NCBI GenBank assembly: GCA_964407915.1
Contig: CAYOXK010000005.1
Span: 734-64,733 of the forward strand
Reading direction: 5' to 3'
Source of the DNA: an uncultured Gammaproteobacteria bacterium
Lineage (GTDB): Bacteria > Pseudomonadota > Gammaproteobacteria > Arenicellales > Arenicellaceae
Length of the DNA stretch: 64,000 nucleotides
The notes below the pieces were generated by a model that worked only from the letters and a program-made list of their open reading frames with translations, did not search any database and had not been told where the DNA came from. Below, piece after piece: positions 2,931-22,582 of this stretch. How positions within the stretch are numbered: the first letter of the stretch is position 1; every line of letters starts with the position of its first letter. Both the position numbers and the translations under genes were made by a program.

Positions 2931-3950
2931 ATGCGTGTATTAGGTATTGAAACCTCTTGTGATGACACTGGTATTGCCTTGTACGATTCGGAACAAGGGT
3001 TACTTGCACATGCTCTTTATTCACAAATCGAAACCCATAAGCGTTACGGTGGCGTGGTGCCTGAGTTGGCCGCACGCGATCATATCCGTAAAGTTATTCC
3101 TTTGGTCGAAGTGGTTATGCAACGTGCCCAAGCAGAGCCCTCGAGTGTGGATGCCGTGGCGTATACCTCAGGCCCTGGTTTGGCGGGTGCTTTGTTGGCG
3201 GGCAGCGCCATTGCCAAGGGCTTAGCGTTTGCGTGGAATGTGCCGAGCATCGGTGTACACCATATGGAAGGTCATATGCTGGCACCGATGCTAGAAGAAA
3301 ACGCGCCGGAGTTTCCGTTTATCGCGCTGCTGGTTTCGGGGGGCCATACCTTACTGGCGGAAGTCCAAGGTGTGGGGGAATATAAAATTTTAGGTCAAAC
3401 GCTCGACGATGCTGTGGGTGAGGCGTTCGACAAAACCGCAAAATTGTTGGGCTTAGGGTATCCAGGTGGACCGGCCATTGCACAGCGAGCTAAATCAGGA
3501 GACCCCAGCCGCTTTACGTTTCCGCGGCCGATGCTAGACCGCCCAGGGTTGGATTTTAGTTTTAGCGGACTCAAGACCTTTGCGCTCACCACGGTGCAAC
3601 AAAACGCTCTCGACCCACAAACGGTAGCGGATATCGCGTGGGCATTTCAAGACGCGGCGGTAGATACCTTGGTGCGCAAATGCAAACGGGCGATTGAACA
3701 AACCAAGATTCCAAGACTGGTTGTGGCTGGCGGTGTGGGTGCTAATTTAGTTTTGCGTGAGCGTTTAGCGACCATGATGACCGCTGCCAAGGGCCAAGCT
3801 TTTTATCCCAAAATTGAGTTTTGTACCGACAACGGCGCCATGATCGCCTACGCAGGATGTCAACGCTTGCACCAAGCAACCACCGACTTAAGCTTTAGTG
3901 TAAAAGCGCGCTGGTCGTTAGAGGAGCTCCCACCTCTTTTTCCCGCGTAA
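2931..3950 (+). CDS. tsaD: tRNA t6A threonylcarbamoyltransferase TsaD
   Basis: [59 protein letters not shown]. Confidence 0.98.
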
Positions 3951-4104
3951 GGCGGGGACCGAAACCATGGGTTGTTAGCACCACTTTGTCATTCCCACGT
4001 AGGCGGGAAACCATGGTTTGGCATTATGCTAGGTAATGGATCTAGGTCCCCGCCTTCGCGGGGATGACGAACAACATGTGGGGATGACGGGGCGCGGGGA
4101 TGAC
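3941..4104. repeat. Second cluster of the same palindromic repeat family
   Basis: Forward units at 3941-3960 (tcccgcgtaaggcggggacc) and 3988-4013 (gtcattcccacgtaggcgggaaacca). Reverse units at 4045-4068, 4078-4088 and 4089-4104 (ggggcgcggggatgac, near reverse complement of 1701-1716). Lies between convergent tsaD and plsY. Confidence 0.85.
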
Positions 4105-4117
4105 GTATCCGACGAAT

Positions 4118-4726
4118 TCAGCCTTTACTGCCTATCTTACTTTCAGTGCCGGCTTTCAGGCGCTCTAGGTTCTCGCGGTGTTGCCTGAACAAAAACGCGA
4201 TTATCCATAACACGCCACCGATCAGTTGCAGCTGTGCTGGGTCGTTGAAGATGGCGAAGCTAGCTAGGCCCGTAACCGCGGCGGCGACTAGCGCGGCTAA
4301 CGACGAGTAGCGAAACGCCAGCGCGGTGGCAGCCCAGACGCCTACAAACACACCGAGCAATGGCAATGATAGCCCCGCGAATACGCCAATCGCAGTGGCG
4401 ACACCTTTGCCACCTTTAAATCCAAAAAACACCGGATACAAATGCCCCATAAAGGCCGCGATGCTCACTACCGCCACCCAGCCATTACTCACGCCCATTT
4501 CAATCGCCAGTAGCACGGGCACCAGGCCTTTGAGTACATCGCCCGCGAGCGTAATCAGTGCGGCGAGCTTGCCGCCAGTGCGTAAGACATTAGTGGCTCC
4601 AGGATTGCCGCTGCCCGCTGTGCGCGGATCAGGCAAACCCATGAGTTTAGCGGTGATCACCGCGCTCGACACCGAGCCCAAGCAGTATGCGAAAAGCACT
4701 AAGAGATAAGGTATAAAGCTGTCCAT
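4118..4726 (-). CDS. plsY: Glycerol-3-phosphate acyltransferase PlsY
   Basis: GSGNPGATNVLR, GHLYPVFFGFKGGKGVATA, HRENLERL...GTE. Confidence 0.97.
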   Translation of the reverse strand: MDSFIPYLLVLFAYCLGSVSSAVITAKLMGLPDPRTAGSGNPGATNVLRTGGKLAALITLAGDVLKGLVPVLLAIEMGVSNGWVAVVSIAAFMGHLYPVFFGFKGGKGVATAIGVFAGLSLPLLGVFVGVWAATALAFRYSSLAALVAAAVTGLASFAIFNDPAQLQLIGGVLWIIAFLFRQHRENLERLKAGTESKIGSKG

Positions 4727-4872: not shown

Positions 4873-5226
4873 ATGGATACCATATTTATAAACGGCATTC
4901 GTTGCCAGTGTGTGATTGGGGTTTACCCGTGGGAGCAAGCAACTACGCAAACCATCGTGTTTAATCTAGAGTGCGCAGCAAACTTTGCACCCGCAGCACG
5001 TAGCGATGCGTTGGAAGATGCGCTCGATTATCAGCAAGTCACTGAGCGAATTGTGGAATACGCGCAAGCTTCGCGGGTACAGCTCATCGAAACCCTAATT
5101 ACCCAAATAGCCGATCTACTCATGGAAGAGTTCAAATTAAGCTGGTTACGGCTAACCTTGGACAAAGGCGGCGTATTAAAGCACGCTAAGCAAGTTGGCT
5201 TGATGACCGAGCGCGGTAGTCGCTAA
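4873..5226 (+). CDS. folB: Dihydroneopterin aldolase
   Basis: MDTIFINGI...IGVYPWEQ, DALDYQQV, LIETL; divergent from plsY as usual. Confidence 0.93.
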   Translation: MDTIFINGIRCQCVIGVYPWEQATTQTIVFNLECAANFAPAARSDALEDALDYQQVTERIVEYAQASRVQLIETLITQIADLLMEEFKLSWLRLTLDKGGVLKHAKQVGLMTERGSR

Positions 5227-5999
5227 TTCACCACCGACCGGCCACCGTCTACGGCCAAGGTCTGGCCTGTGATGTAGCTTGCATTCGAGACAAAAAACAA
5301 CACCGTTTGGGCTATCTCCTCTGGTGTGCCTAGCCGACCGAGCGGAATCGATTTCAACACAGTGTCTAACTGCAGTGGGTGGTCGTCATTTTCTGGCCAC
5401 AATATGGCCCCGGGGGCGATGCCATTAACGCGAATCTGGGGTGCCAGATCTCGCGCTAAGGCCCGCGTTAACATTTCTAAGCCGGCTTTTGCGGCGCAAT
5501 AAATGGCGTGATCGGCTAATGGGCGACGCGCATAGATGTCTACAATATTCACCACGCTGCCCTTTTGTTCGCGCAAATGCGGCACGCAGGCTTGAGTTAA
5601 AAAGAATGGCGCTTTTAAGTTACTGCTGAGCAAATCGTCCCATTGCGCGAGCGACGCTTGAGTGATGGGTGTGGGGTAAAAAGTGGAAGCATTGTTAACT
5701 AAAACATCCAACCGCCCAAACTGCGCGATGCACTCGGCTACGAGCGGTGCGATGGACTCTATATCGTTTAGATCGGCGGCAAACGAGCTGGCCGAGTTAG
5801 GGCGGCGCTGGTTGAGGCTTACTACAAGATCGTGCGCCTGGTCGGCGGAGGTGTTGTAGTGAACGAGCACGTTATAACCAGCCTCGTGCAGCATTTGCGT
5901 TATACGTTTACCAATACGCCGCGCGCCGCCTGTAACAAGGGCCGTTTTAGTGAGATGGGCGTTTTGATCAACAGCGTCGGCCGAGGAGGTGTTAGTCAT
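5223..5999 (-). CDS. Pteridine reductase (SDR, FolM/PTR1-like)
   Basis: TGGARRIG, VLVHY, LVNNAS, YCAAK, PQIRVNGIAPG; next to folB. Confidence 0.85.
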   Translation of the reverse strand: MTNTSSADAVDQNAHLTKTALVTGGARRIGKRITQMLHEAGYNVLVHYNTSADQAHDLVVSLNQRRPNSASSFAADLNDIESIAPLVAECIAQFGRLDVLVNNASTFYPTPITQASLAQWDDLLSSNLKAPFFLTQACVPHLREQKGSVVNIVDIYARRPLADHAIYCAAKAGLEMLTRALARDLAPQIRVNGIAPGAILWPENDDHPLQLDTVLKSIPLGRLGTPEEIAQTVLFFVSNASYITGQTLAVDGGRSVVN

Positions 6000-7038: not shown

Positions 7039-7970
7039 TGGAAGATGTAAAACAAGCGCACTCTCAGGTCGCTGACGGGTCTGAAGAAGAACTGCGTTCC
7101 GACCTCAAACGGCGGTTTGTGTTTGATCACGCGGATGTGCGGGGCTGTTATGCACGCCTTGTTGAGAGCTGCCAAATGATTCAGTCGACGCACTATTACC
7201 CCAATGCATTGGCGCGTTTAATTAACGAATTTACCGTGGCAGCGGTCTTGTTAAAAGACAGTATCAAGGCCGATGGAGGGCTATCAGTGCAAATGCGCAC
7301 CGAGGGCGATATTCATCTATTGATTGCCGATTGTGCGAACGACGGTTCAGTGCGGGCTATCTGTGAATATAATCACAGCGCGGTGCTATCCGAGCAGATT
7401 GCGCTCAATTTACTGCCTAGTCCGGTGTTAGCGGTCACCATTACGCCCGATAGTGAAGAGCGTTATCAAAGCATCATTCCGGTGGAAAAATCCACTTTAG
7501 CGCTTTGTTTAGAAGACTACTTCGAGCGCTCTGAGCAACTTCCGAGCCGCTTTCATCTACTGGCCAGTGCCACCCAAGTGGTTGGTTTTTCCCTGCACGC
7601 TTTACCCACGCAACAGATCACCGACACCCAACTAAGTGCCCAGCAGTTTGAGCATTTGGGTGTTTTGCTCAAGTCGATGACCCTAAGCGAAGCGCATGAA
7701 GATACCAGCGCCACAGCGCTTACCAAGTTATTTCACGATGAAGCGTGTCGACTCTTCGCGCCGCAGGCTTTGCAGTTTGGCTGCGAGTGCAGCACCGAGC
7801 GCTCTCTTAACGCCTTACAATCTCTAGGCAAGGAAGAAGTGGCTGCCTTAGTAGCCGAACATCAAGCGCAGGGTAAAGACGTAATTACTATTGATTGTCA
7901 TTTTTGTTTTCAGCAGTATTACATATCATTTGAACAAGCCAACAGCCTCTTTTTAGACGTTCTCCAATGA
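7038..7970 (+). CDS. hslO: Hsp33 redox-regulated chaperone
   Basis: C-terminal zinc motif FGCECS...DCHFC; ATG overlaps the uppP stop (TAATG). Confidence 0.9.
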   Translation: MEDVKQAHSQVADGSEEELRSDLKRRFVFDHADVRGCYARLVESCQMIQSTHYYPNALARLINEFTVAAVLLKDSIKADGGLSVQMRTEGDIHLLIADCANDGSVRAICEYNHSAVLSEQIALNLLPSPVLAVTITPDSEERYQSIIPVEKSTLALCLEDYFERSEQLPSRFHLLASATQVVGFSLHALPTQQITDTQLSAQQFEHLGVLLKSMTLSEAHEDTSATALTKLFHDEACRLFAPQALQFGCECSTERSLNALQSLGKEEVAALVAEHQAQGKDVITIDCHFCFQQYYISFEQANSLFLDVLQ

Positions 7971-8524
7971 GCACATTACAAGATCAATTAAAACTAGCCG
8001 GCTTAGTTAAGCCTAAACAAAAGGCGCAGGCACCTAAGCCGAAAAAAGCCCCTAAGCCCGCTAAGAAGGATCGCGTTAAAGTATCGGACGAAACGTTACG
8101 CGCGCAGCAGGCCATGATCAAGAAGGCCAAGCGAGACCGCGCCCTAAATGAACAGCGCGAAGCCGAACGAAAGCAAAAGGAGCTCGATGCGCAAGTGTTG
8201 CAGTTGATCGATCATGCCAAACTTGACCGTGCCGACGCGCAGGATTCGTTTAATTTCACGCATCGCAAAAAAGTAAAAAGTATTGCCGTCACTTCGGAAC
8301 AGCGACGCGGTTTAAGTAACGGCACATTGGGCGTGGTGGTTACCTCGGGGCAACGTTTCGAAGTGGTTCCCAAGACGGCCGTGCTAAAGCTGCAAGAGCG
8401 CTATGCACCTGCGGTGGTCTTCTTCGCGGCAACAGCGGCTGAGCAAGTGGCGGCTGGTGCTGTTAAAGGCGAGCAAGACGACCTCTATGCAGGATATGAA
8501 GTACCCGATGATTTAATCTGGTAG
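7967..8524 (+). CDS. DUF2058 (YaiL-like) protein
   Basis: MSTLQDQLKLAGLV N-terminus, ERDRAL-like KRDRALN segment, C-terminus YAGYEVPDDLIW. Confidence 0.85.
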   Translation: MSTLQDQLKLAGLVKPKQKAQAPKPKKAPKPAKKDRVKVSDETLRAQQAMIKKAKRDRALNEQREAERKQKELDAQVLQLIDHAKLDRADAQDSFNFTHRKKVKSIAVTSEQRRGLSNGTLGVVVTSGQRFEVVPKTAVLKLQERYAPAVVFFAATAAEQVAAGAVKGEQDDLYAGYEVPDDLIW

Positions 8525-8592
8525 CGACCCATTTATTGATGTCCCATAACTAAAAAAAACGAAAAGCGAAAAGCGAGCAAAGGAGCTAAGTG

Positions 8593-9798
8593 ATGAAGAA
8601 AATACTAATCGGATTGATCGTACTGGTTGCAGTAGCGATTTGGGCAATGAGCACCATTGGCGTAAAGCGAATGGATCAATCCATGAACTTAGTACTCGAG
8701 CACACTCCGTACTCAATAAGCGCCGAAGCGGCCGAATTACATGCTTCGCTAATAGTAGGCGACTGGCACGCCGACACGGCACTTTGGAACCGTGATATGC
8801 GTGGACGGCATGACTTTGGGCATGTTGATTTAGCACGTATGCAGGAAGGCAATTTAGGCTTGCAAATGTTTACCACGGTCACCAAGTCGCCGGCTGGGCA
8901 AAACTATGAACGTAACGAGACGGGCGCGCGTGACAACATCACCATGTTGGCCATGGCGCAACTGTGGCCGTTGGCTACTTGGTCGAGTCTTACTGAGCGT
9001 GCATTGTATCAAGCGGGTAAAGTGTTTGATTTGGCCGAACGTAAACCGAATGATTTCACTGTGGTATTAAATAAAGCAGATCTTGCTGAGTGGTTGTTGA
9101 CTCGTTCAAGTAACCCCACGTTTACGGCCGGCTTGATTGGCACAGAAGGGTCGCATGCCTTGGACGACAAGCTAGAAAACATTGATGTGTTGTACAACGC
9201 GGGCTTTCGCATGATGAGCTTGCAACACTTTTTCGACAATGCGCTCGGCGGTTCGTTGCACGGTACCAGTCAACTCGGGCTCACTGATTTTGGTAAGCAG
9301 GCCGTTAAAATGATGCAAGCCAAAGACATTATCGTAGATGTGTCGCATTCCTCTGAAGCCAGTGTGCGCGATGTATTAGCGCAAAGCACCAAACCGTTGG
9401 TGGTAAGTCATACGGGCTTTAAAGGTCATTGCGACACCCCCCGAAATATCTCGGATGAGTTAATGATCGACATCGCTAACCAAGGTGGCTTGATTGCGGT
9501 AGGGTTTTGGGATGGTGCCATTTGTGGTGCCTCACCCGAGAATGTTGTTGACGCAATTGAATATGGAATTGCTTTAGTAGGCGCAGATCATGTGGCGTTA
9601 GGCTCAGATTTTGACGGTACCGTAGAAACCTCATTCGATGCGAGTGAAATGGCCATATTGACGCAGACTATGCTTGATCGAAACATACCGCGCGATGTAA
9701 TTCGTAAAGTAATGGGTGGCAATATGCTGCGGTTTTTAAGTCAAAATTTACCTGACCAAATTAATGTGCGCCGCTCGCTCTCTGTAGTCACACAGTGA
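8593..9798 (+). CDS. Membrane-anchored dipeptidase (peptidase M19 family)
   Basis: N-terminal hydrophobic anchor; DWHAD, TEGSH, VDVSH, VVSHT, DHVALGSDFDG. Confidence 0.88.
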   Translation: MKKILIGLIVLVAVAIWAMSTIGVKRMDQSMNLVLEHTPYSISAEAAELHASLIVGDWHADTALWNRDMRGRHDFGHVDLARMQEGNLGLQMFTTVTKSPAGQNYERNETGARDNITMLAMAQLWPLATWSSLTERALYQAGKVFDLAERKPNDFTVVLNKADLAEWLLTRSSNPTFTAGLIGTEGSHALDDKLENIDVLYNAGFRMMSLQHFFDNALGGSLHGTSQLGLTDFGKQAVKMMQAKDIIVDVSHSSEASVRDVLAQSTKPLVVSHTGFKGHCDTPRNISDELMIDIANQGGLIAVGFWDGAICGASPENVVDAIEYGIALVGADHVALGSDFDGTVETSFDASEMAILTQTMLDRNIPRDVIRKVMGGNMLRFLSQNLPDQINVRRSLSVVTQ

Positions 9799-11282
9799 AC
9801 TTCACTATTGGCGCGAGCATTATAAAACCCTTAAGCCTGTACTTATGTTTGTGCTTTGGTCTGTTGGGCACAGTGCAGGTGGCGGTGGCCGAGGATATTG
9901 AAGGATGGCTGCATACGGTTTATGGTGATGCACGAGTGGGCGATTCGGGCAGTCGATTGGTGGCGTATTTAACTGATGATCAGAACCGCCGTTATGAGCT
10001 GCTAGTTAGAGAGTCAGCCGCGGTGTCGCTTAGGTCGCTTCAGGCCAACAGCGGCAAGCGGGTAAGTGTGAGTGTAGTCAGCGCGCCTAAAATGGACGGT
10101 TCGGTGTCAAGCGACTCGTCGTTATACATCAACAACATGGTCGTGCGAGCGCCCGCGCCCGACTCGGCTAAAAGGATGCAGCGTGGGGCTAGTTCGGCAG
10201 CCACGCCCGCATCAAAGCGCTATGTTTCACTGCTGTGTAAATTTAGCGATGTGGCCACCGAAGACCAACCTTTTAGCTACTTCGACGCCATGTATGGTGA
10301 TGCGCCAGGGCAACTCGGCCATTACTGGCGCGAAGTGTCCAGCGAAGCGATTAACTTAATTGGCTCTCGTGCCTACGGGGGCGCTGGTGGCAGTTCGGGC
10401 TGGTTCACCATGATCGGCCCACGTTCCAAATACATCAGTCCCACCCGCGAAGTAGATCTTGGCTTGTTGTTTGACGACTGTACTTCGGTGGCCGATTCTT
10501 TCGTGGATTTTTCGAACGTAGATGGCATTAATCTCATGTTTAACGGCGAAATCGGGTGTTGCGCTTGGGGAGGCGGTTGGCGCGCCATCCTAGATGGCAA
10601 CAATCGGGAGTTCCCAACCACTTGGGAGCCCGACTGGGCATGGTCTGATGTCGCTGTGTTAGCACATGAAATGGGTCACTCGTTTGGTTTGCCGCACTCG
10701 AATAACTCCGATGGCGATAACGATCCCTATGATTCGCCGTGGACGGTAATGAGCTATGCGTTTGGTGGCTTTGCCGATCCTATTTATGGGCTCAAAGGCG
10801 TGCACCTTAATGCTTATGAAAAGCTTAGTTTAGGTTGGTTACAAGGTGTTGAAGTGTATCGTGTACCGAAAACGGGCATCACTCGGCGGGTTAAATTGTC
10901 GTTTTTAGATCGCGCTCAGGCGACCAATGGAGCATACAGAACGGCCCTATTTGAGATCAGTAAAAACCGCTACTTTACGGTGGAAGCTCGTCGTCGTGGA
11001 GGCATCTACGAGGGGTTGGAAGGCACGGCCGTGTTGATCCACTCGGTTGATGAGCAACGTAAAGAGCCATCGTGGGTGGTGGATGCAGGCTCACCCGCGG
11101 CCGACTTTGCCGATACCGAGGGCGTGATGTGGCGCGTGGGCGAAGAGTATCGCAATGCGGCGTTGGGTATTTCGGTAAAAATCATCAGCCAAGACGCCAC
11201 GGGCTTTACGGTAGATGTGTTGGCCGAGGGTGACTCTACCTCGCTACCTGCGCTGTGGCTATTATTGGACGACGTGAACTAG
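9795..11282 (+). CDS. Secreted zinc metalloprotease (M6/immune inhibitor A-like)
   Basis: Signal peptide ending VAVA-E; LAHEMGHSFGLPH zinc motif; W-T-V-M-S Met-turn; HLNAYEKLSLGWL; YFTVEARRR; hydrophobic tail LPALWLLLDDVN. Confidence 0.75.
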   Translation: MNFTIGASIIKPLSLYLCLCFGLLGTVQVAVAEDIEGWLHTVYGDARVGDSGSRLVAYLTDDQNRRYELLVRESAAVSLRSLQANSGKRVSVSVVSAPKMDGSVSSDSSLYINNMVVRAPAPDSAKRMQRGASSAATPASKRYVSLLCKFSDVATEDQPFSYFDAMYGDAPGQLGHYWREVSSEAINLIGSRAYGGAGGSSGWFTMIGPRSKYISPTREVDLGLLFDDCTSVADSFVDFSNVDGINLMFNGEIGCCAWGGGWRAILDGNNREFPTTWEPDWAWSDVAVLAHEMGHSFGLPHSNNSDGDNDPYDSPWTVMSYAFGGFADPIYGLKGVHLNAYEKLSLGWLQGVEVYRVPKTGITRRVKLSFLDRAQATNGAYRTALFEISKNRYFTVEARRRGGIYEGLEGTAVLIHSVDEQRKEPSWVVDAGSPAADFADTEGVMWRVGEEYRNAALGISVKIISQDATGFTVDVLAEGDSTSLPALWLLLDDVN

Positions 11283-17203: not shown

Positions 17204-17235
17204 TTAAAAATCACATCCTTTAAGAGAAATTGCGC

Positions 17236-17757
17236 ATGAGCAACCGTAAATTAATTGTTTCGGTATTCGCCGAAGACCGACCGAATCTGGTTAACGAGAT
17301 TTCAGATCAAGTGCTGGAATTTGATGGCAATTGGTTAGAAAGCAGCTTGTCGCGCTTATGCGGTCAGTTTGCTGGACTCATCCATATTGATATTGATGAC
17401 GAAAATCGTGACGACTTACTTGAGGCATTAGAGGGGTTGGCCGAACAGGGTATTTACATCACAGAGCAAAGTGCCGTGGGTGTGGTTGATGACTCCGACA
17501 CGGTTAATGTGATTGAAATTATGGTCGAAGCCAATGATCGTCCCGGTATTATTGGCGAAATAACCCGTACACTCGGCGCCGCAAATATTAATATCGACAG
17601 CCTCGATACGGGCTGCGAGAGTGCGTCGATGGCGGGATACACGCTGTTTCGTGCGCACATGATGCTGGCCATGCCTGAAGGCATGGACGAGGATGATTTG
17701 GAAGAGTTAATCGCAGGCGTGTCCGACGACATTATGATTTCGGTGCTGGAAAACTAA
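17236..17757 (+). CDS. Tandem ACT-domain protein (GcvR-like)
   Basis: Two ACT motifs: EDRPNLV...GNWLESSLSRL and ANDRPGIIGEI...NINI. Confidence 0.8.
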   Translation: MSNRKLIVSVFAEDRPNLVNEISDQVLEFDGNWLESSLSRLCGQFAGLIHIDIDDENRDDLLEALEGLAEQGIYITEQSAVGVVDDSDTVNVIEIMVEANDRPGIIGEITRTLGAANINIDSLDTGCESASMAGYTLFRAHMMLAMPEGMDEDDLEELIAGVSDDIMISVLEN

Positions 17758-17827: not shown

Positions 17828-18763
17828 CTATGCCGTGCGCTTGTTCTGCCACCAATAGAGCAGACCTTGCGCGTTTAAGTTGGCGTCTAAGCGTAACCAC
17901 TCGCGCGCGGTGGCTGTGTCGAGATTGGGTAGTTCGTTGGTGGCCCGCGTTACCAAATAATCTTCAATCCGCTGCCCCAGCGAGTCTGGCTCCCCTGCTT
18001 GCATAACTTGCTTGGTGATCGCCACATAGTCATCAATTTGTTCGTGTAAACCTGCGATGATGCGTGTGCTTGGCGTTAGCTCGCTGTAGTGGGTGGGGTA
18101 GAGTCGGCTCGGGCTTAGCGCCATTATTCGGTCAATCGAGGCGTGCAGAGCGTCGGGATTAAACTGTACGGGAGTCGTGGTGGGGCATACAAAGCTGTGC
18201 TGCTCGTCGCGCAAAGCGCGGTAAGCGATACCGAGTGTGTCGCCCGTAAATACGCATTTAGAGCCTTCGTCCATAATGCAGTAGTGGTGTGATGCATGGC
18301 CCGGCGTGTCGTAAAACGTGAGGGTTTTGCCGCCAAATTGCAGTTGCTCACTGTCCTCTAAAGAGCGCACGCGCGCGGCATCAACGCCTTCGATCGTGCC
18401 ATACAACTTGGCAAATTCAGCTTCGCCATAAACGGCGGTTGCGCCGGCGATCAGCGCCGATGGATCAACCATGTGGCGGGCGCCGCGGGGGTGAACAACC
18501 AGCGTAGCATTTTCGCATAAGCGCATAAGTGCGCCCGCGCCACCCGCGTGATCCAAATGGATATGCGTTAATAAAATCCAATCCACATTGGCAAAGCTCG
18601 CATTTAATCGCTTTAGTGCCGCCTCTATATACGGCACAGAGTCATTGGCGCCAGTATCGATTATGGCAAAGCGATCGCCATCCCTTAGCAAATGTATAGA
18701 GGCGAGCTCGGGTTGATAATAGTGCGCGTCGACCACGAAAATGTCGGGGTTAGAAGTATGCAT
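17828..18763 (-). CDS. MBL-fold metallo-hydrolase
   Basis: THIHLDHAGG, TPGHASHH, FTGD, PTH. Confidence 0.9.
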   Translation of the reverse strand: MHTSNPDIFVVDAHYYQPELASIHLLRDGDRFAIIDTGANDSVPYIEAALKRLNASFANVDWILLTHIHLDHAGGAGALMRLCENATLVVHPRGARHMVDPSALIAGATAVYGEAEFAKLYGTIEGVDAARVRSLEDSEQLQFGGKTLTFYDTPGHASHHYCIMDEGSKCVFTGDTLGIAYRALRDEQHSFVCPTTTPVQFNPDALHASIDRIMALSPSRLYPTHYSELTPSTRIIAGLHEQIDDYVAITKQVMQAGEPDSLGQRIEDYLVTRATNELPNLDTATAREWLRLDANLNAQGLLYWWQNKRTA

Positions 18764-18909
18764 AGTTGAGTTTCTTTACAAAGCGGTAATCATTACAGAG
18801 CGCATTAAACACTATCTACGCCCAAAAAAAATGTAAGAATGAATCGTTCCAGACGTTCTTTAAGTCTGAGTTGTAACTAAAACCATTCACTTTAAGAGGA
18901 TTATTTATT

Positions 18910-19311
18910 ATGCAAAACCAGAAAGTATTGAAAAAAACAGCGGTAGCGACAGGCGCAGGTCTTGCGAGCAGCGTACTCGCCGCTGCGTTGATGAGTGTAT
19001 CATCAGTGGCGTCTGCGGGAGACACCGAACGTTGTGCAGACATCGTTAAAGGCGGCAGCAACAGCTGTGCCGTAAAATCCTTAGGTATTTCATGCCAAGG
19101 TAATGCCACTGAAGACAATATGGTGGGCGCATGGATTAAAGTACCTGCGGGTACGTGTGGCAATATCGTCAACTTGTGTGCCGGAACAGCGGACGCACCT
19201 GAGGGCACTGACCCTAAAAAATTAGCCAAAGCATGCGAGAAAATTGCCGAGCAAAGTGATTCTGCGGTAGCGGGTGGTCGACTCGTGGATAAATTCGGCG
19301 AAGCGATTTAA
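18910..19311 (+). CDS. DUF2282/BufA1-like exported Cys-rich RiPP precursor (atypical, 6 Cys)
   Basis: Signal peptide to about VASA36. ERC...NSC...ISCQG...W.KVPAGTC matches the DUF2282 pattern. Followed by MNIO, DUF2063 and DoxX. Confidence 0.85.
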
Positions 19312-19389
19312 GCAAAAGCAACGCTGGCGTTAGCGCATTAGTTTGTCTATTCACTAGACTAATTTATGCTAACTGCAGCGACGTATTAG

Positions 19390-19412
19390 GGGTGGATTCG
19401 TCCACCCTTTTT
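19390..19412 (+). terminator. Intrinsic terminator between precursor and MNIO gene
   Basis: gggtgga-ttcg-tccaccc followed by ttttt. Confidence 0.65.
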
Positions 19413-19455
19413 ATTTGCCGGTCGCGCCACGCCTAATTATTCGATAATCACCTAT

Positions 19456-21150
19456 ATGTCTTATTCGATGAACACTGTGAACGACATACATGTGGGCTTA
19501 GGTATTCGTCCCGAGCTGTTTGCCGCAGTGCGCGCGGCCAAGCCGCCGCTCGCATTCTTCGAAGCGCACTCAGAAAACTATTTTGGCGATTCTCTTAACC
19601 GAGATTATTTGTTGGATTTAGCGACAGAGTATCCCATTGCTTTACATGGGGTAGGAGCATCGCTCGGTCGCGCCGATGCACTCAATGCCGAGCATTTGCG
19701 TGAACTGCGTCGGCTCGTAGAGGCTGTCAAGCCACTGTTTGTGTCTGATCACTTAGCGTGGAGTGCGTATCAGCACACACATCTTCCCGATCTATTCCCC
19801 GTGCCGCTCACACCACAAGCGTTTGCGGTGGTGTGCGATCACGTGCGCGCGATGCAAGACGCGCTTGGGCGCCAGATATTAGTCGAAAACCCATCAAATT
19901 ATGCGCTGTTTAGCGCGGCGCAATGGCCAGAGTCCCACTTTTTGAACGAGCTCGCCGAGCAAACGGGTTGTGGCGTCTTGCTCGATGTAAACAATGTGTA
20001 TGTGTCGGCGTCTAATGTCGGGAGCGACCCCGTGGCCTATATAGAGCAACTGGAGTCGGGGATTATTCAGGAGTATCACTTAGCCGGTTATACCCCCGTT
20101 ACACGGTCGTTGCAGGGCAAGCCTACGCAACTCTTGATCGACACCCACAATCACCCAGTGCACTCGCCCGTTTGGGGATTGTTTGAAATGACCGTGGCTC
20201 GGCACGGAGTGCGCCCCACGCTGATTGAGTGGGACAGCGACTTCCCTGCGCTGGATGTACTGCTTGGAGAGTGTGACAAGGCCCAGACGCGGTTGCTCAA
20301 GGCGCGGCCGCTCGCGACTGCCACGAACAAGCTAGAGATCGCCAAGACAGAAGCACAAAGTACAGCTCCAGCATCGCAGCACACGAGTAAGGCCATGCCA
20401 GTGGCGCTAGAATTATCGGCATTCCAGCATGGTTTTACGCGGGACGTACTCGCTAAAGCCACCACTACTGCGGCGTTTACCGAATCACACAACGAGCGTG
20501 TTGGTATTTACCAAAACAATGTATTTGCGGCGTTGCACGACTATTTAATGCAAGTATATCCAGCGGTGAATGGCGTGTTGGGCGCGGAGTATTTTCGCGC
20601 ATTGTGTCATTCCTTCTGCGCCCAATATCCGCCTAATTATGGGGATATCCATCGCTATGGTGCTGCTCTGCCGGAGGTGCTGGCTAACGAAGTAGCGTTG
20701 CAGGAAATGCCGTATCTGTATGATTTAGCGCTGTATGAATGGGCCCTGCACAGCGCCTATTTTAGTGCGCAAGGCGAGATGCTTGATCATCAAAACAGTG
20801 ATCAAGCGACATTGCTCGCGACACCGCTTACATTAAACGCAAGCGTAGCCGTCATCGCGTCACAGTATCCAATTTTAGCGATTCACGAGCAGTCCTTACC
20901 TGGGTATGAAGGCGAAGTGGCCATCACCTTACAACAAGGAGGCGACAGCGTTGTAGTGTACAAACAACAGCAATGTGTGCATACGTTCAGCATCCAACCG
21001 ATGCAAGTACACTTTTTTCGAGCACTGCAAAAATCCACCACGTTGATGCAAGCAATTGAGGGCTTGGGCGGGTCTATACCACAAGCACAGTTAAGCGAGG
21101 CGCTGAGTTTATGTTTACGCCATGCTCTACTGAACCCGTGTTCACTCTAA
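19456..21150 (+). CDS. Fused MNIO (DUF692, BufB-like) + DUF2063 (BufC-like) protein
   Basis: N-terminal half: GLGIR, EAHSENY, LHGVG.SLG, SDHLAW, LVENPSNY, LLDVNNVYVS, HLAG, LIDTH, TLIEWD. After an Ala/Thr-rich linker: RVGIYQNN...YPAV...LGAEYF...YLYDLALYEW. Confidence 0.92.
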   Translation: MSYSMNTVNDIHVGLGIRPELFAAVRAAKPPLAFFEAHSENYFGDSLNRDYLLDLATEYPIALHGVGASLGRADALNAEHLRELRRLVEAVKPLFVSDHLAWSAYQHTHLPDLFPVPLTPQAFAVVCDHVRAMQDALGRQILVENPSNYALFSAAQWPESHFLNELAEQTGCGVLLDVNNVYVSASNVGSDPVAYIEQLESGIIQEYHLAGYTPVTRSLQGKPTQLLIDTHNHPVHSPVWGLFEMTVARHGVRPTLIEWDSDFPALDVLLGECDKAQTRLLKARPLATATNKLEIAKTEAQSTAPASQHTSKAMPVALELSAFQHGFTRDVLAKATTTAAFTESHNERVGIYQNNVFAALHDYLMQVYPAVNGVLGAEYFRALCHSFCAQYPPNYGDIHRYGAALPEVLANEVALQEMPYLYDLALYEWALHSAYFSAQGEMLDHQNSDQATLLATPLTLNASVAVIASQYPILAIHEQSLPGYEGEVAITLQQGGDSVVVYKQQQCVHTFSIQPMQVHFFRALQKSTTLMQAIEGLGGSIPQAQLSEALSLCLRHALLNPCSL

Positions 21151-21169
21151 ACGATAATCGAATAAAACT

Positions 21170-21583
21170 ATGATCAGTCTCTACAATGCATTTAGTGCTT
21201 TTGCCATTTCTATTGTCACGCCACTCGCCAATCTTTGGGCGCGCATCTATGTAGGCCTGGTGTTCTTTCGTTCCGGCCAAGCGAAGTTGGCCGACTTTGA
21301 AGAAACCATTGAGTTTTTCGCTGACGATTGGGCCTTACCTTTCTTGCCGGCTGAACCCGCTGCGTATCTCGCCACGGCGGGTGAACTTATTCTACCCATA
21401 TTGCTCATCTTAGGTTTGTTCACTCGGGTCGGCGCATTGGGTTTGTTGCTTATGGCCATCGTGATTCAAGTGTTTGTGTTTCCGATGAACGAGCATTACT
21501 ACTGGATGATTATTCTGGCGCTGCTAGTAGGCCAAGGTGGTAGCAAATTGTCGGTTGATCATTTGTTGCTAAAAACCAAGTAA
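21170..21583 (+). CDS. DoxX family membrane protein (BufD-like)
   Basis: RIYVGLVFFRSG..K, AYLATAGELILPILLILGLFTR, G.SKLSVD. Confidence 0.9.
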   Translation: MISLYNAFSAFAISIVTPLANLWARIYVGLVFFRSGQAKLADFEETIEFFADDWALPFLPAEPAAYLATAGELILPILLILGLFTRVGALGLLLMAIVIQVFVFPMNEHYYWMIILALLVGQGGSKLSVDHLLLKTK

Positions 21584-21661
21584 ACGCGACCTGTTGATGC
21601 TTTCTGTTCGTCAGAGAGCACCACGCTTTACACGGCGCTCGGTAGTGGTGAGAATGACGCT

Positions 21662-22582
21662 ATGCAGAAAACTAGCCACCCATCGCGTGCCTACATCGGT
21701 CGTTATGCGCCGAGCCCTACCGGTGCCTTGCACTTAGGTAATCTGCAAACGGCCCTTTTGGCGTGGCTGCACGCACGGTTACATGGCGGAACTTTTTTGT
21801 TGCGTATGGAAGATCTCGACACCCCGCGAGTGGTGACTGGTAGCGCAGCGCAGATTGTTGCGGATTTAAGCTGGCTTGGACTAGATTGGGATGGACCAGT
21901 TATTTTTCAATCAGAGCGCTTGGCTTTGTATGATCAAGCTTTTGCCCACTTGCAGCAGCACAATCACGTGTTTCCCTGCTTTTGTTCGCGTAAGGATATT
22001 CGCGAGGCGGCCAGCGCGCCGCATGGTTCGTCGCCTACCTACCCCGGCACCTGCTTGAATTTGAGTGCGCAAGACTGCACCGAGCGCGCGCGCAGTAAAT
22101 CGCCTGCGTATCGCTTGCGTTGTGCACCATCGCTCGGCAGCGCCGAGGATGAGCTTGACTGTTTTGTAGTGAAACGAGCCGATGGGGTGTATGCGTATCA
22201 CCTCGCGGTAACGGTCGACGATCTCGTACAGGGTGTCACGCATGTGGTGCGGGGCGCGGACCTGCATACTAGCCAGACGCAGCAGCGTTATCTAGCGCAA
22301 CTATTAGAGCCGCATCGTGCACCACTGGCGTACCTAAGCGTTCCCTTAAAACTCGATACCGCTGGCCAGCGGATGTCTAAGCGCGATGGTTCTGAATCTG
22401 CGCAACAGTGGATTGCGCGTGGCGGCACGGCCGCAGATCTTGTGGGTAAGTTAGCCTTTGAAGTGGGGCTGATTGATGCCGCTAAGCCACTTAGCGCGCA
22501 AGAACTACTCAAAACCATTGATCTAGATTGTTGGCAAGCGGCGATGACTACCTACTCGCCCATTCGCGCAAGCGCTATTTAG
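21662..22582 (+). CDS. gluQ: Glutamyl-Q tRNA(Asp) synthetase
   Basis: GRYAPSPTGALHLGN, LRMEDLD, CFCSRK, YHLAVTVDD, VVRGADL, RMSKR; lacks an anticodon-binding domain. Confidence 0.9.
   Translation: MQKTSHPSRAYIGRYAPSPTGALHLGNLQTALLAWLHARLHGGTFLLRMEDLDTPRVVTGSAAQIVADLSWLGLDWDGPVIFQSERLALYDQAFAHLQQHNHVFPCFCSRKDIREAASAPHGSSPTYPGTCLNLSAQDCTERARSKSPAYRLRCAPSLGSAEDELDCFVVKRADGVYAYHLAVTVDDLVQGVTHVVRGADLHTSQTQQRYLAQLLEPHRAPLAYLSVPLKLDTAGQRMSKRDGSESAQQWIARGGTAADLVGKLAFEVGLIDAAKPLSAQELLKTIDLDCWQAAMTTYSPIRASAI

Follow-up and report, generated by a model that had tools for sequence, protein, structure and literature searches.

Among MNIO-modified peptides, bufferins form the largest group known; they are a widespread bacterial response to copper stress, and only a few have been characterised. 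In Caulobacter vibrioides, the buf1 cluster encodes the Sec-type DUF2282 precursor BufA1 (80–120 aa, four Cys), the MNIO BufB1, its DUF2063/RRE partner BufC1 and the DoxX protein BufD1 (PMC11626156). BufB and BufC are necessary and sufficient to form thiooxazoles on the central Cys, a disulfide joins the first Cys of BufA1 to the last, Sec export has been shown, DoxX is dispensable, and one of two copper ions is held by Buf1 with a dissociation constant of ~6e-15 (PMC11626156). The class has also been named captophorins (PMC13097082). Here we describe a cluster of this kind in a 64,000-nt stretch of DNA (contig CAYOXK010000005.1 of assembly GCA_964407915.1; hereafter the window) from an uncultured marine gammaproteobacterium of the Arenicella lineage (order Arenicellales). 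It comprises a gene for a long DUF2282 precursor (bufA-L), a gene for a fused maturase (bufBC) and doxX; the four-Cys paralogue of sister genomes is referred to as canonical bufA. The cluster is likely a functional bufferin-1 (captophorin-class) system, for whose long product we infer thiooxazole chemistry and metal binding by homology.

The oxazolin system HvfABC(X) of Haemophilus influenzae also pairs an MNIO with a PME1 partner and carries 5-thiooxazoles on an exported Cys-rich protein (PMC11252979); its substrate is an EGKCG-repeat protein, whereas the window precursor belongs to DUF2282 and has no EGKCG repeats. Methanobactin biosynthesis by MbnABC resembles the window system in the MNIO fold, the iron ligands, the presence of a partner protein and the oxidative Cys-to-heterocycle chemistry for copper, but it acts on a leader-dependent small peptide without a Sec signal and yields an oxazolone–thioamide, secreted as a chalkophore.

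Layout of the locus and family assignment

Three open reading frames (ORFs) follow one another in one direction on the plus strand; the genes and their domains are listed below, with low-confidence structure expressed as the predicted local distance difference test (pLDDT) of the AlphaFold model.

18910–19311, plus strand: bufA-L, six-Cys DUF2282 precursor, 133 aa (PF10048 match)
18910–19017, plus strand: predicted Sec signal peptide, residues 1–36, cleavage after VASA (sequence inspection)
19027–19170, plus strand: DUF2282 core, residues 40–87, with CysI C42, CysII C53, CysIII C62 and CysIV C83 (Pfam and alignment)
19171–19308, plus strand: genus-specific C-terminal module, residues 88–133, with C90, C109 and a GGRLV tail (not in canonical BufA)
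19456–21150, plus strand: bufBC, single-chain MNIO::DUF2063/RRE maturase, 564 aa (family matches)
19492–20289, plus strand: MNIO (BufB) TIM-barrel domain, residues 13–278 (PF05114, 299 bits)
20290–20421, plus strand: variable linker, residues 279–322 (no alignment consensus; pLDDT <50 at 301–313)
20422–21147, plus strand: BufC-like part, DUF2063 at residues 323–408 followed by an RRE-type C-terminal domain (PF09836)
21170–21583, plus strand: doxX (bufD-like), membrane protein of 137 aa, starting 19 nt after bufBC (PF07681)

A preliminary description of this DNA had read it as a bufferin-like series of DUF2282 precursor, MNIO–DUF2063 and DoxX in one direction. That order, from DUF2282 precursor through the MNIO::DUF2063 fusion to DoxX, was recovered at the same positions, and it fits the bufABCD architecture (PMC11626156). 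The hidden Markov model (HMM) searches proposed for its four domains all gave matches: DUF2282 at 44.7 bits (cut-off 22.4; residues 40–87 on profile positions 2–49 of 53), DUF692 (MNIO, PF05114) at 299 bits, DUF2063 at 60.6 bits (cut-off 27.2) and DoxX at 75.2 bits (cut-off 23.6). The NCBIfam model NF050167, 'MNIO family bufferin maturase' (BufB equivalog), matched BufBC at 315.6 bits with a cut-off of 310, and this assignment by profile places the enzyme in the bufferin branch of the MNIO family. Models for HvfB (NF003818, 200.5 bits, cut-off 360), MbnB (TIGR04159, 66.2 bits, cut-off 325), ApyH and ChrH all stayed far under their cut-offs on BufBC.

Compared with buf1 of C. vibrioides (PMC11626156), the locus has in common the Sec-type DUF2282 precursor, the gene order, the spacings of 10 and 20 residues among the four core Cys, the BufB-type MNIO, the DUF2063/RRE partner and DoxX. 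It differs in the size and Cys count of the precursor (133 aa and six, against 80–120 aa and four), in a central loop of 8 rather than 6 residues, in an added helical module of ~46 residues, in the joining of BufB and BufC into one polypeptide, and in a genome without SigF/NrsF genes. The earlier remark that both precursor and enzyme depart from the described type therefore holds, in that the former is long and six-Cys and the latter is a single chain. All sequence-level features of Buf1 were found apart from the originally stated size range and Cys count. The precursor does lie outside the published range of 80–120 aa; as a later survey widened the Buf1 range to 30–835 aa, size is not a strict criterion (PMC12452194). 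Judged by these family matches, the locus is a genuine bufferin-1 (Buf1) cluster, a lineage-specific variant of a very common system and not a new system.

The genome measures 2.92 Mb in 177 contigs (99.5% complete), and the window is part of its contig 5. Genome-wide searches found exactly one MNIO gene, that of the locus, and bufA-L as the only real DUF2282 gene; a 16-bit DUF2282 match on contig 64 proved to be an off-frame stretch among unannotated ORFs of housekeeping size and was discarded as spurious. The GC content around the locus is unremarkable, and no known RNA family gave a significant match in the region.

The six-cysteine precursor and its history

The precursor had been described as an exported Cys-rich peptide, and this is borne out by a Sec-type signal recognised by eye (a basic n-region, a hydrophobic h-region and VASA followed by GD at the cleavage site) together with six Cys at positions 42, 53, 62, 83, 90 and 109. 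The predicted mature protein (residues 37–133) has 97 residues, a pI of 4.8, no His and, when reduced, a calculated monoisotopic mass of 9721.70 Da.

A MAFFT alignment was built from bufA-L and 32 canonical BufA sequences, some of its own genus, some of other families in the order and the rest of two distant loci. C42, C53, C62 and C83 align with Cys I–IV of all 32, the I–II, II–III and III–IV spacings being 10, 8 and 20 in bufA-L versus 10, 6 and 20 in the canonical proteins, and the two central Cys are flanked by ERCADIV and ISCQG versus EKC(Y/Q)G and (S/G)CAG. From this correspondence, C53 and C62 are the predicted thiooxazole sites. Canonical BufA ends ~10–25 residues past CysIV, usually in C(E/D)K(I/L)(V/A)GG, whereas bufA-L runs 50 residues past it, with CEKIA immediately following C109 and a conserved GGRLV close to the C-terminus; residues 88–133, ~46 in all, have no counterpart in canonical BufA. 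The preliminary wording of an insertion that splits a GTC–EKI motif is one fair description of this segment, although MAFFT places it as an extension. Since the central Cys and the I–II and III–IV spacings are canonical, the default expectation from the alignment is that an ordinary bufferin core with two thiooxazoles has gained a C-terminal module. The canonical bufA genes of the genus (for example L047, 2566–2856) share the locus and the fused enzyme with bufA-L and are ~43% identical to it over the core, but they are absent from the window and encode proteins of ~95 aa with four Cys, a 6-residue loop and a Lys/Glu-rich tail.

AlphaFold modelling with 120 homologues left residues 1–35, the signal region, disordered (pLDDT <50) and gave the mature part a pLDDT of ~80–90, with a strand at 39–43, the Cys loop, a strand at 74–79, helices at 83–91 and 102–110 and a strand at 124–126. 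In this model, the strand–loop–strand–helix plan of BufA1 appears to be kept and a second helix added. Among solved structures, no sequence match to bufA-L was found in the PDB and the fold search returned nothing similar (best E = 4.6).

For the origin of the extra segment there is a hint only. It aligns weakly to the CysIII–CysIV half of DUF2282 through CAG, PEGT and CEKI (hhalign P = 0.0016, probability 16%), which may point to an internal duplication; an HMM search for such a duplication reached ~5 bits only. The same segment raises the question of whether BufBC also converts C90, and possibly C109, in which case the heterocycles would number three or four and the product would have a second metal site or an altered one. 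C90 stands in an invariant (I/L)-C-A-G-T, and an identical C-A-G-T comes after the modified CysIII of canonical BufA in the order's other families; neither C90 nor C109 varies among 120 homologues, and one MNIO is able to process many Cys in EGKCG-type substrates (PMC13097082). We nevertheless find this improbable, given that the duplication signal is weak, that AlphaFold confidently places C90 and C109 in helices, that they form an even pair in an exported protein, most simply read as a disulfide, and that in BufA1 the central two Cys alone are modified (PMC11626156). Unlikely to a similar degree is the broader proposal that the six-Cys peptide is a distinct genus-born subclass, whose module came from a partial CysIII–CysIV duplication and whose C90 is a third substrate site. 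If it were true, the 8-residue loop and the module would bring a different heterocycle count together with another metal stoichiometry or specificity, and Arenicella genomes with two precursors would make two chemically different metallophores with one enzyme.

A search of a large protein database yielded 237 homologues of bufA-L; the 120 listed are nearly all 127–133 aa long and 68–84% identical, and all six Cys are invariant across them. Sampling of 121 genomes across the order showed the long form in 15 of the 17 genomes of the window's genus (Arenicella) and in none outside it, where only canonical DUF2282 proteins matching residues 1–88 were found. Across the genus loci, identity to the window is 65–83% for the precursor versus 44–58% for the adjacent enzyme. 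We conclude that bufA-L is a genus-born paralogue under strong purifying selection. The precursor and the fused enzyme were also found on shared contigs in metagenomes.

Synteny was compared across the window and the locus of 15 sister Arenicella genomes, 14 of which carry bufA-L (16 genomes in total). The gene order is constant: a divergent gene for a metallo-beta-lactamase (MBL)-fold protein, bufA-L, an optional canonical bufA, bufBC, doxX and a gluQ-like gene. The precursor content varies as follows:

Both precursors present: 11 genomes, with canonical bufA between bufA-L and bufBC
Long precursor only: 4 genomes, including the window and its closest relative, G490
Canonical precursor only, no DoxX: 1 genome, Arenicella xantha

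The long-only genomes occupy at least two well-supported separate places on the BufBC tree, which means that canonical bufA was lost at least twice, and bufA-L once. Canonical bufA has been lost in the window's lineage, and bufA-L is consequently the sole candidate substrate of the fused enzyme in this genome. A remnant of canonical bufA was sought in the 144-nt spacer 19312–19455 and rejected, as the spacer is too short and contains a terminator instead.

In A. xantha (L060, G350; 5210–5504), bufA-L and doxX are gone and TTGTAAGC ... GTGTAACATTTGAAA is left as a remnant of the upstream motif described below. The remnant precedes a 295-nt gap at the expected place of bufA-L and points to loss of this gene by deletion. 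Tandem precursor genes have been mentioned in general terms (PMC12452194); the pair of long and canonical precursors of Arenicella was not described in the literature searched.

The fused maturase

BufBC carries a full set of candidate iron-ligand and site-3 residues: H64, H99, E144, D177, N180, H208, D229, H231 and E258 are invariant in 70 homologues. At all nine positions the aligned residue of 3BWW is the same, as is that of MbnB except at H64, which falls outside the aligned stretch. N180, D229 and H231 lie in the same conserved motifs as N175, D242 and H244 of HvfB, whose alanine variants are inactive (preprint 10.64898/2026.07.17.739211). The AlphaFold model (pLDDT 86.3, predicted template-modelling (TM) score 0.86) is confident in both domains and disordered in the linker at 301–313. 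Its N-terminal half superposes on the MNIO structures 3BWW (TM 0.83), TglH and MbnB, and a mixture of helix and strand is predicted for its C-terminal part.

A sequencing artefact can be dismissed as the source of the fusion, since more than 100 homologues of 530–590 aa carry both PF05114 and PF09836. Unlike the window, the 18 bufABCD loci from other families of the order (L061–L078) have separate bufB (~286 aa) and bufC (~260 aa) genes, whose coding regions mostly overlap and which are followed by doxX in most cases; the joined gene is therefore a derived state of the Arenicella lineage. Proteins of fusion length also occur in other lineages at ~32% identity, in a sample of 400 genomes of the class, and the two inspected sit beside canonical four-Cys precursors. 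In a search of 1.84 billion proteins, 90 of the 150 best representatives at 50% identity were at least 480 aa long. With at least 90 fusion-length clusters at 50% identity, the MNIO::DUF2063 fusion is not rare.

Natural fusions from elsewhere (for example L007/G136 and L011/G086) share with BufBC the domain order, a length of ~530–600 aa and a position next to DUF2282 and DoxX genes, but are only 30–40% identical to it, and the precursors served by those inspected are canonical, with four Cys; independent fusion events are their probable origin. Next to the cluster of L007 is an ORF (3466–4131) with an S-T-F-K motif, possibly of a class D beta-lactamase or transpeptidase fold. The preliminary suggestion that the product may be new keeps the status of a conjecture, and the fusion, common in public data, is no sign of new chemistry.

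In the key bufferin and MNIO literature searched, neither natural MNIO–DUF2063 fusions nor Arenicella are mentioned. An engineered HvfB–HvfC fusion is reported to work in vivo and to surpass the co-expressed proteins markedly in its in vitro activity, a gain ascribed to an enforced 1:1 interaction (preprint 10.64898/2026.07.17.739211). With this precedent, the natural fusion is easy to rationalise. The engineered protein has the same B-then-C order as BufBC but no linker, against a variable linker of ~44 residues in the natural one.

Expression and proposed working of the cluster

Three putative expression signals accompany the genes:

18832–18877, plus strand: conserved promoter-like motif, ~78 nt upstream of the bufA-L start (regular expression)
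18895–18899, plus strand: Shine–Dalgarno-like AGAGG, 10 nt before the bufA-L ATG (read from the sequence)
19388–19416, plus strand: terminator-like hairpin between the precursor and enzyme genes, with a 9-bp GC-rich stem and a T-tract (terminator scan)

The upstream motif can be written TGTAAG(A/C)-N16/17-GTTCTT or TGTAAG(C)-N16/17-GTTCT(T), with (G)TTGTAAC or GTGTAAC ~10 nt further on, a layout that we take to resemble promoters of extracytoplasmic function (ECF) sigma factors. A regular-expression search recovered the motif at 14 of the 15 genus loci, 12 times between −74 and −80 relative to the start codon; in the remaining locus (G485), TGTAAT-N17-GGTTCTT can be made out by eye. The sequence flanking the motif is not alignable among the genus loci, and no second copy was found before the downstream genes, including bufBC.

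As the mark of a regulon, the motif was rejected: the genome holds six sites against ~6.9 expected by chance, and the other sites are incoherent. Four ECF-type sigma genes lie elsewhere in the genome. None of them is preceded by the motif at the right spacing, and none of their anti-sigma partners has a metal-related domain. On contig C62, TGTAAGC and GTTCTC are just 10 nt apart and lie within a hairpin. On contig C67, the region ahead of an ECF sigma gene starting at 11070 contains TGCAACC-N16-CGTCTAA, in the same layout as the bufferin TGTAAGC-N16-GTTCTTA; this site is a putative autoregulated promoter, and its sigma factor may drive the bufferin cluster. Contig C16 carries at 7685–9075 an ECF sigma gene followed by a gene for a DUF3379 protein (107.6 bits), which is probably the anti-sigma factor of its neighbour; no link between this pair and the bufferin locus was found.

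The hairpin has a predicted folding energy of −21.4 kcal/mol (z = −3.96), and none of 200 shuffled sequences was as stable. By eye, a hairpin with a T-run occurs at the equivalent position in at least 11 of 15 genus loci, with differing sequences. It is a probable attenuator, likely to allow plentiful precursor message and limited read-through into the enzyme genes, an arrangement often seen in modified-peptide clusters. The lack of a recognisable Shine–Dalgarno sequence before bufBC and the hairpin ahead of it may together keep the enzyme low relative to the precursor.

The hairpin between bufA-L and the enzyme gene can also be read as separating the two. On that reading, the long paralogue is not an MNIO substrate at all but a disulfide-rich periplasmic protein without heterocycles, either a thiol metal binder or a partner of the canonical bufferin, and the BufBC of the window would be an orphan enzyme heading to decay. 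It would fit with canonical BufA standing directly before the enzyme gene in 11 of the 16 genus genomes, with the non-canonical surroundings of the central Cys and loop length of bufA-L, and with the many solitary DUF2282 genes that have no accompanying MNIO (PMC12452194). However, the four long-only genomes all retain intact BufBC and DoxX and the complete set of catalytic residues, the canonical gene was lost at least twice while the enzyme was retained, the sole conserved promoter motif precedes bufA-L and none precedes the enzyme gene, and the central Cys pair of bufA-L is invariant. We regard this explanation as quite improbable.

For the bufferin cluster that we favour, the following working is proposed. 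Transcription would begin at the genus-conserved ECF-like promoter upstream of bufA-L, and the hairpin after this gene would halt most transcripts, leaving an excess of precursor mRNA, with read-through supplying bufBC and doxX. In the cytoplasm, the DUF2063/RRE half of BufBC would hold the precursor, while the MNIO half, with its iron site and O2, would convert C53 and C62 into 5-thiooxazoles at a cost of 4 Da each. After Sec export, signal peptidase would cut behind Ala36 and release a 97-residue acidic protein, in which C42, C83, C90 and C109 could form two disulfides in the periplasm and the extra segment could pack on the DUF2282 fold as a second helix and strand. The thiooxazole pair would bind and buffer periplasmic copper, and DoxX would serve as an accessory membrane protein, dispensable for modification.

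Several observations weigh against this picture. The central loop has 8 residues rather than 6 and its flanking residues are altered in bufA-L, so that modification by BufBC is an assumption. In 11 of 16 genus genomes, and so in most sister genomes, the gene immediately ahead of bufBC is canonical bufA, whose product could serve there as the primary substrate. No recognisable Shine–Dalgarno sequence for bufBC was found before either candidate ATG (19456 and 19468). Two models of the Hvf system fall short of their cut-offs, namely NF050144 (HvfX family) on DoxX, with 60.6 bits against 80, and NF050145 (HvfC) on residues 324–549 of BufBC, with 54.8 bits against 142 over profile positions 2–217 of 237. 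SigF/NrsF control, common in Buf1 clusters, was rejected, as NrsF (PF06532) was found nowhere in the genome. Finally, no copper-homeostasis genes or copper-type regulators were found near the locus.

This last observation would also suit a bufferin-type metallophore with another ligand or role, that is, one that binds a different soft metal or delivers metal to a periplasmic enzyme, a proposal that overlaps with the copper-buffering one. The literature leaves other metals open, with the gig (gold-induced) genes and the existence of MerC fusions (PMC12452194), and the altered loop and extra module could retune the metal site. Against this, all characterised products of MNIO–PME1 pairs bind copper (PMC13097082; PMC11626156), and we give the proposal a small but real chance. 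A study of marine biofilms from biocidal antifouling coatings counted Arenicella, at 2.6%, among the more abundant genera, and its contribution to the community difference was not significant (PMC8383905). As a sign of metal tolerance, this abundance is circumstantial at best.

The genes flanking the cluster are ordinary: SelO, an ACT-domain protein, the divergent MBL-fold hydrolase, a GluQ-type tRNA-synthetase paralogue and a 2-oxoglutarate oxygenase, with two more downstream ORFs resembling, by eye, hisB and hisH. The MBL-fold gene (17828–18763, minus strand) is divergent from bufA-L, shares a 146-nt intergenic region with it and was found in 16 of 16 genus genomes; the ACT-domain gene (17230–17757, plus strand) adjoins it and is present in the window and two sister loci. 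Downstream of doxX, the GluQ-type (tRNA-synt_1c) gene (21662–22582, plus strand) occurs in every genus genome. A sigma-70-like promoter-like site (21627–21655) lies just upstream of this gene, and no terminator was detected after doxX; co-transcription of the GluQ-type gene with the bufferin genes is possible. In the 18 loci of other families, none of the MBL, GluQ-like and ACT-domain genes was found beside bufABCD. Conservation of the MBL-fold and GluQ-like neighbours stops at the genus boundary, and both were rejected as parts of the cluster; the MBL/ACT adjacency looks like genus synteny rather than a functional link.

Together, our results leave the picture of how bufferin systems work unchanged. 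Of interest are a genus-specific six-Cys precursor with a helical module and a longer loop, and a lineage in which loss of the canonical precursor leaves a clean enzyme–substrate pair. BufBC is a natural single-chain BufB–BufC enzyme, of a kind comparable to the fusion that the field has just built by hand for a stoichiometric enzyme of higher activity. As a natural pair of one enzyme and one substrate, the system is useful for questions of enzyme recognition and metal-site tuning, and the sister genomes offer the same enzyme facing two different precursors.

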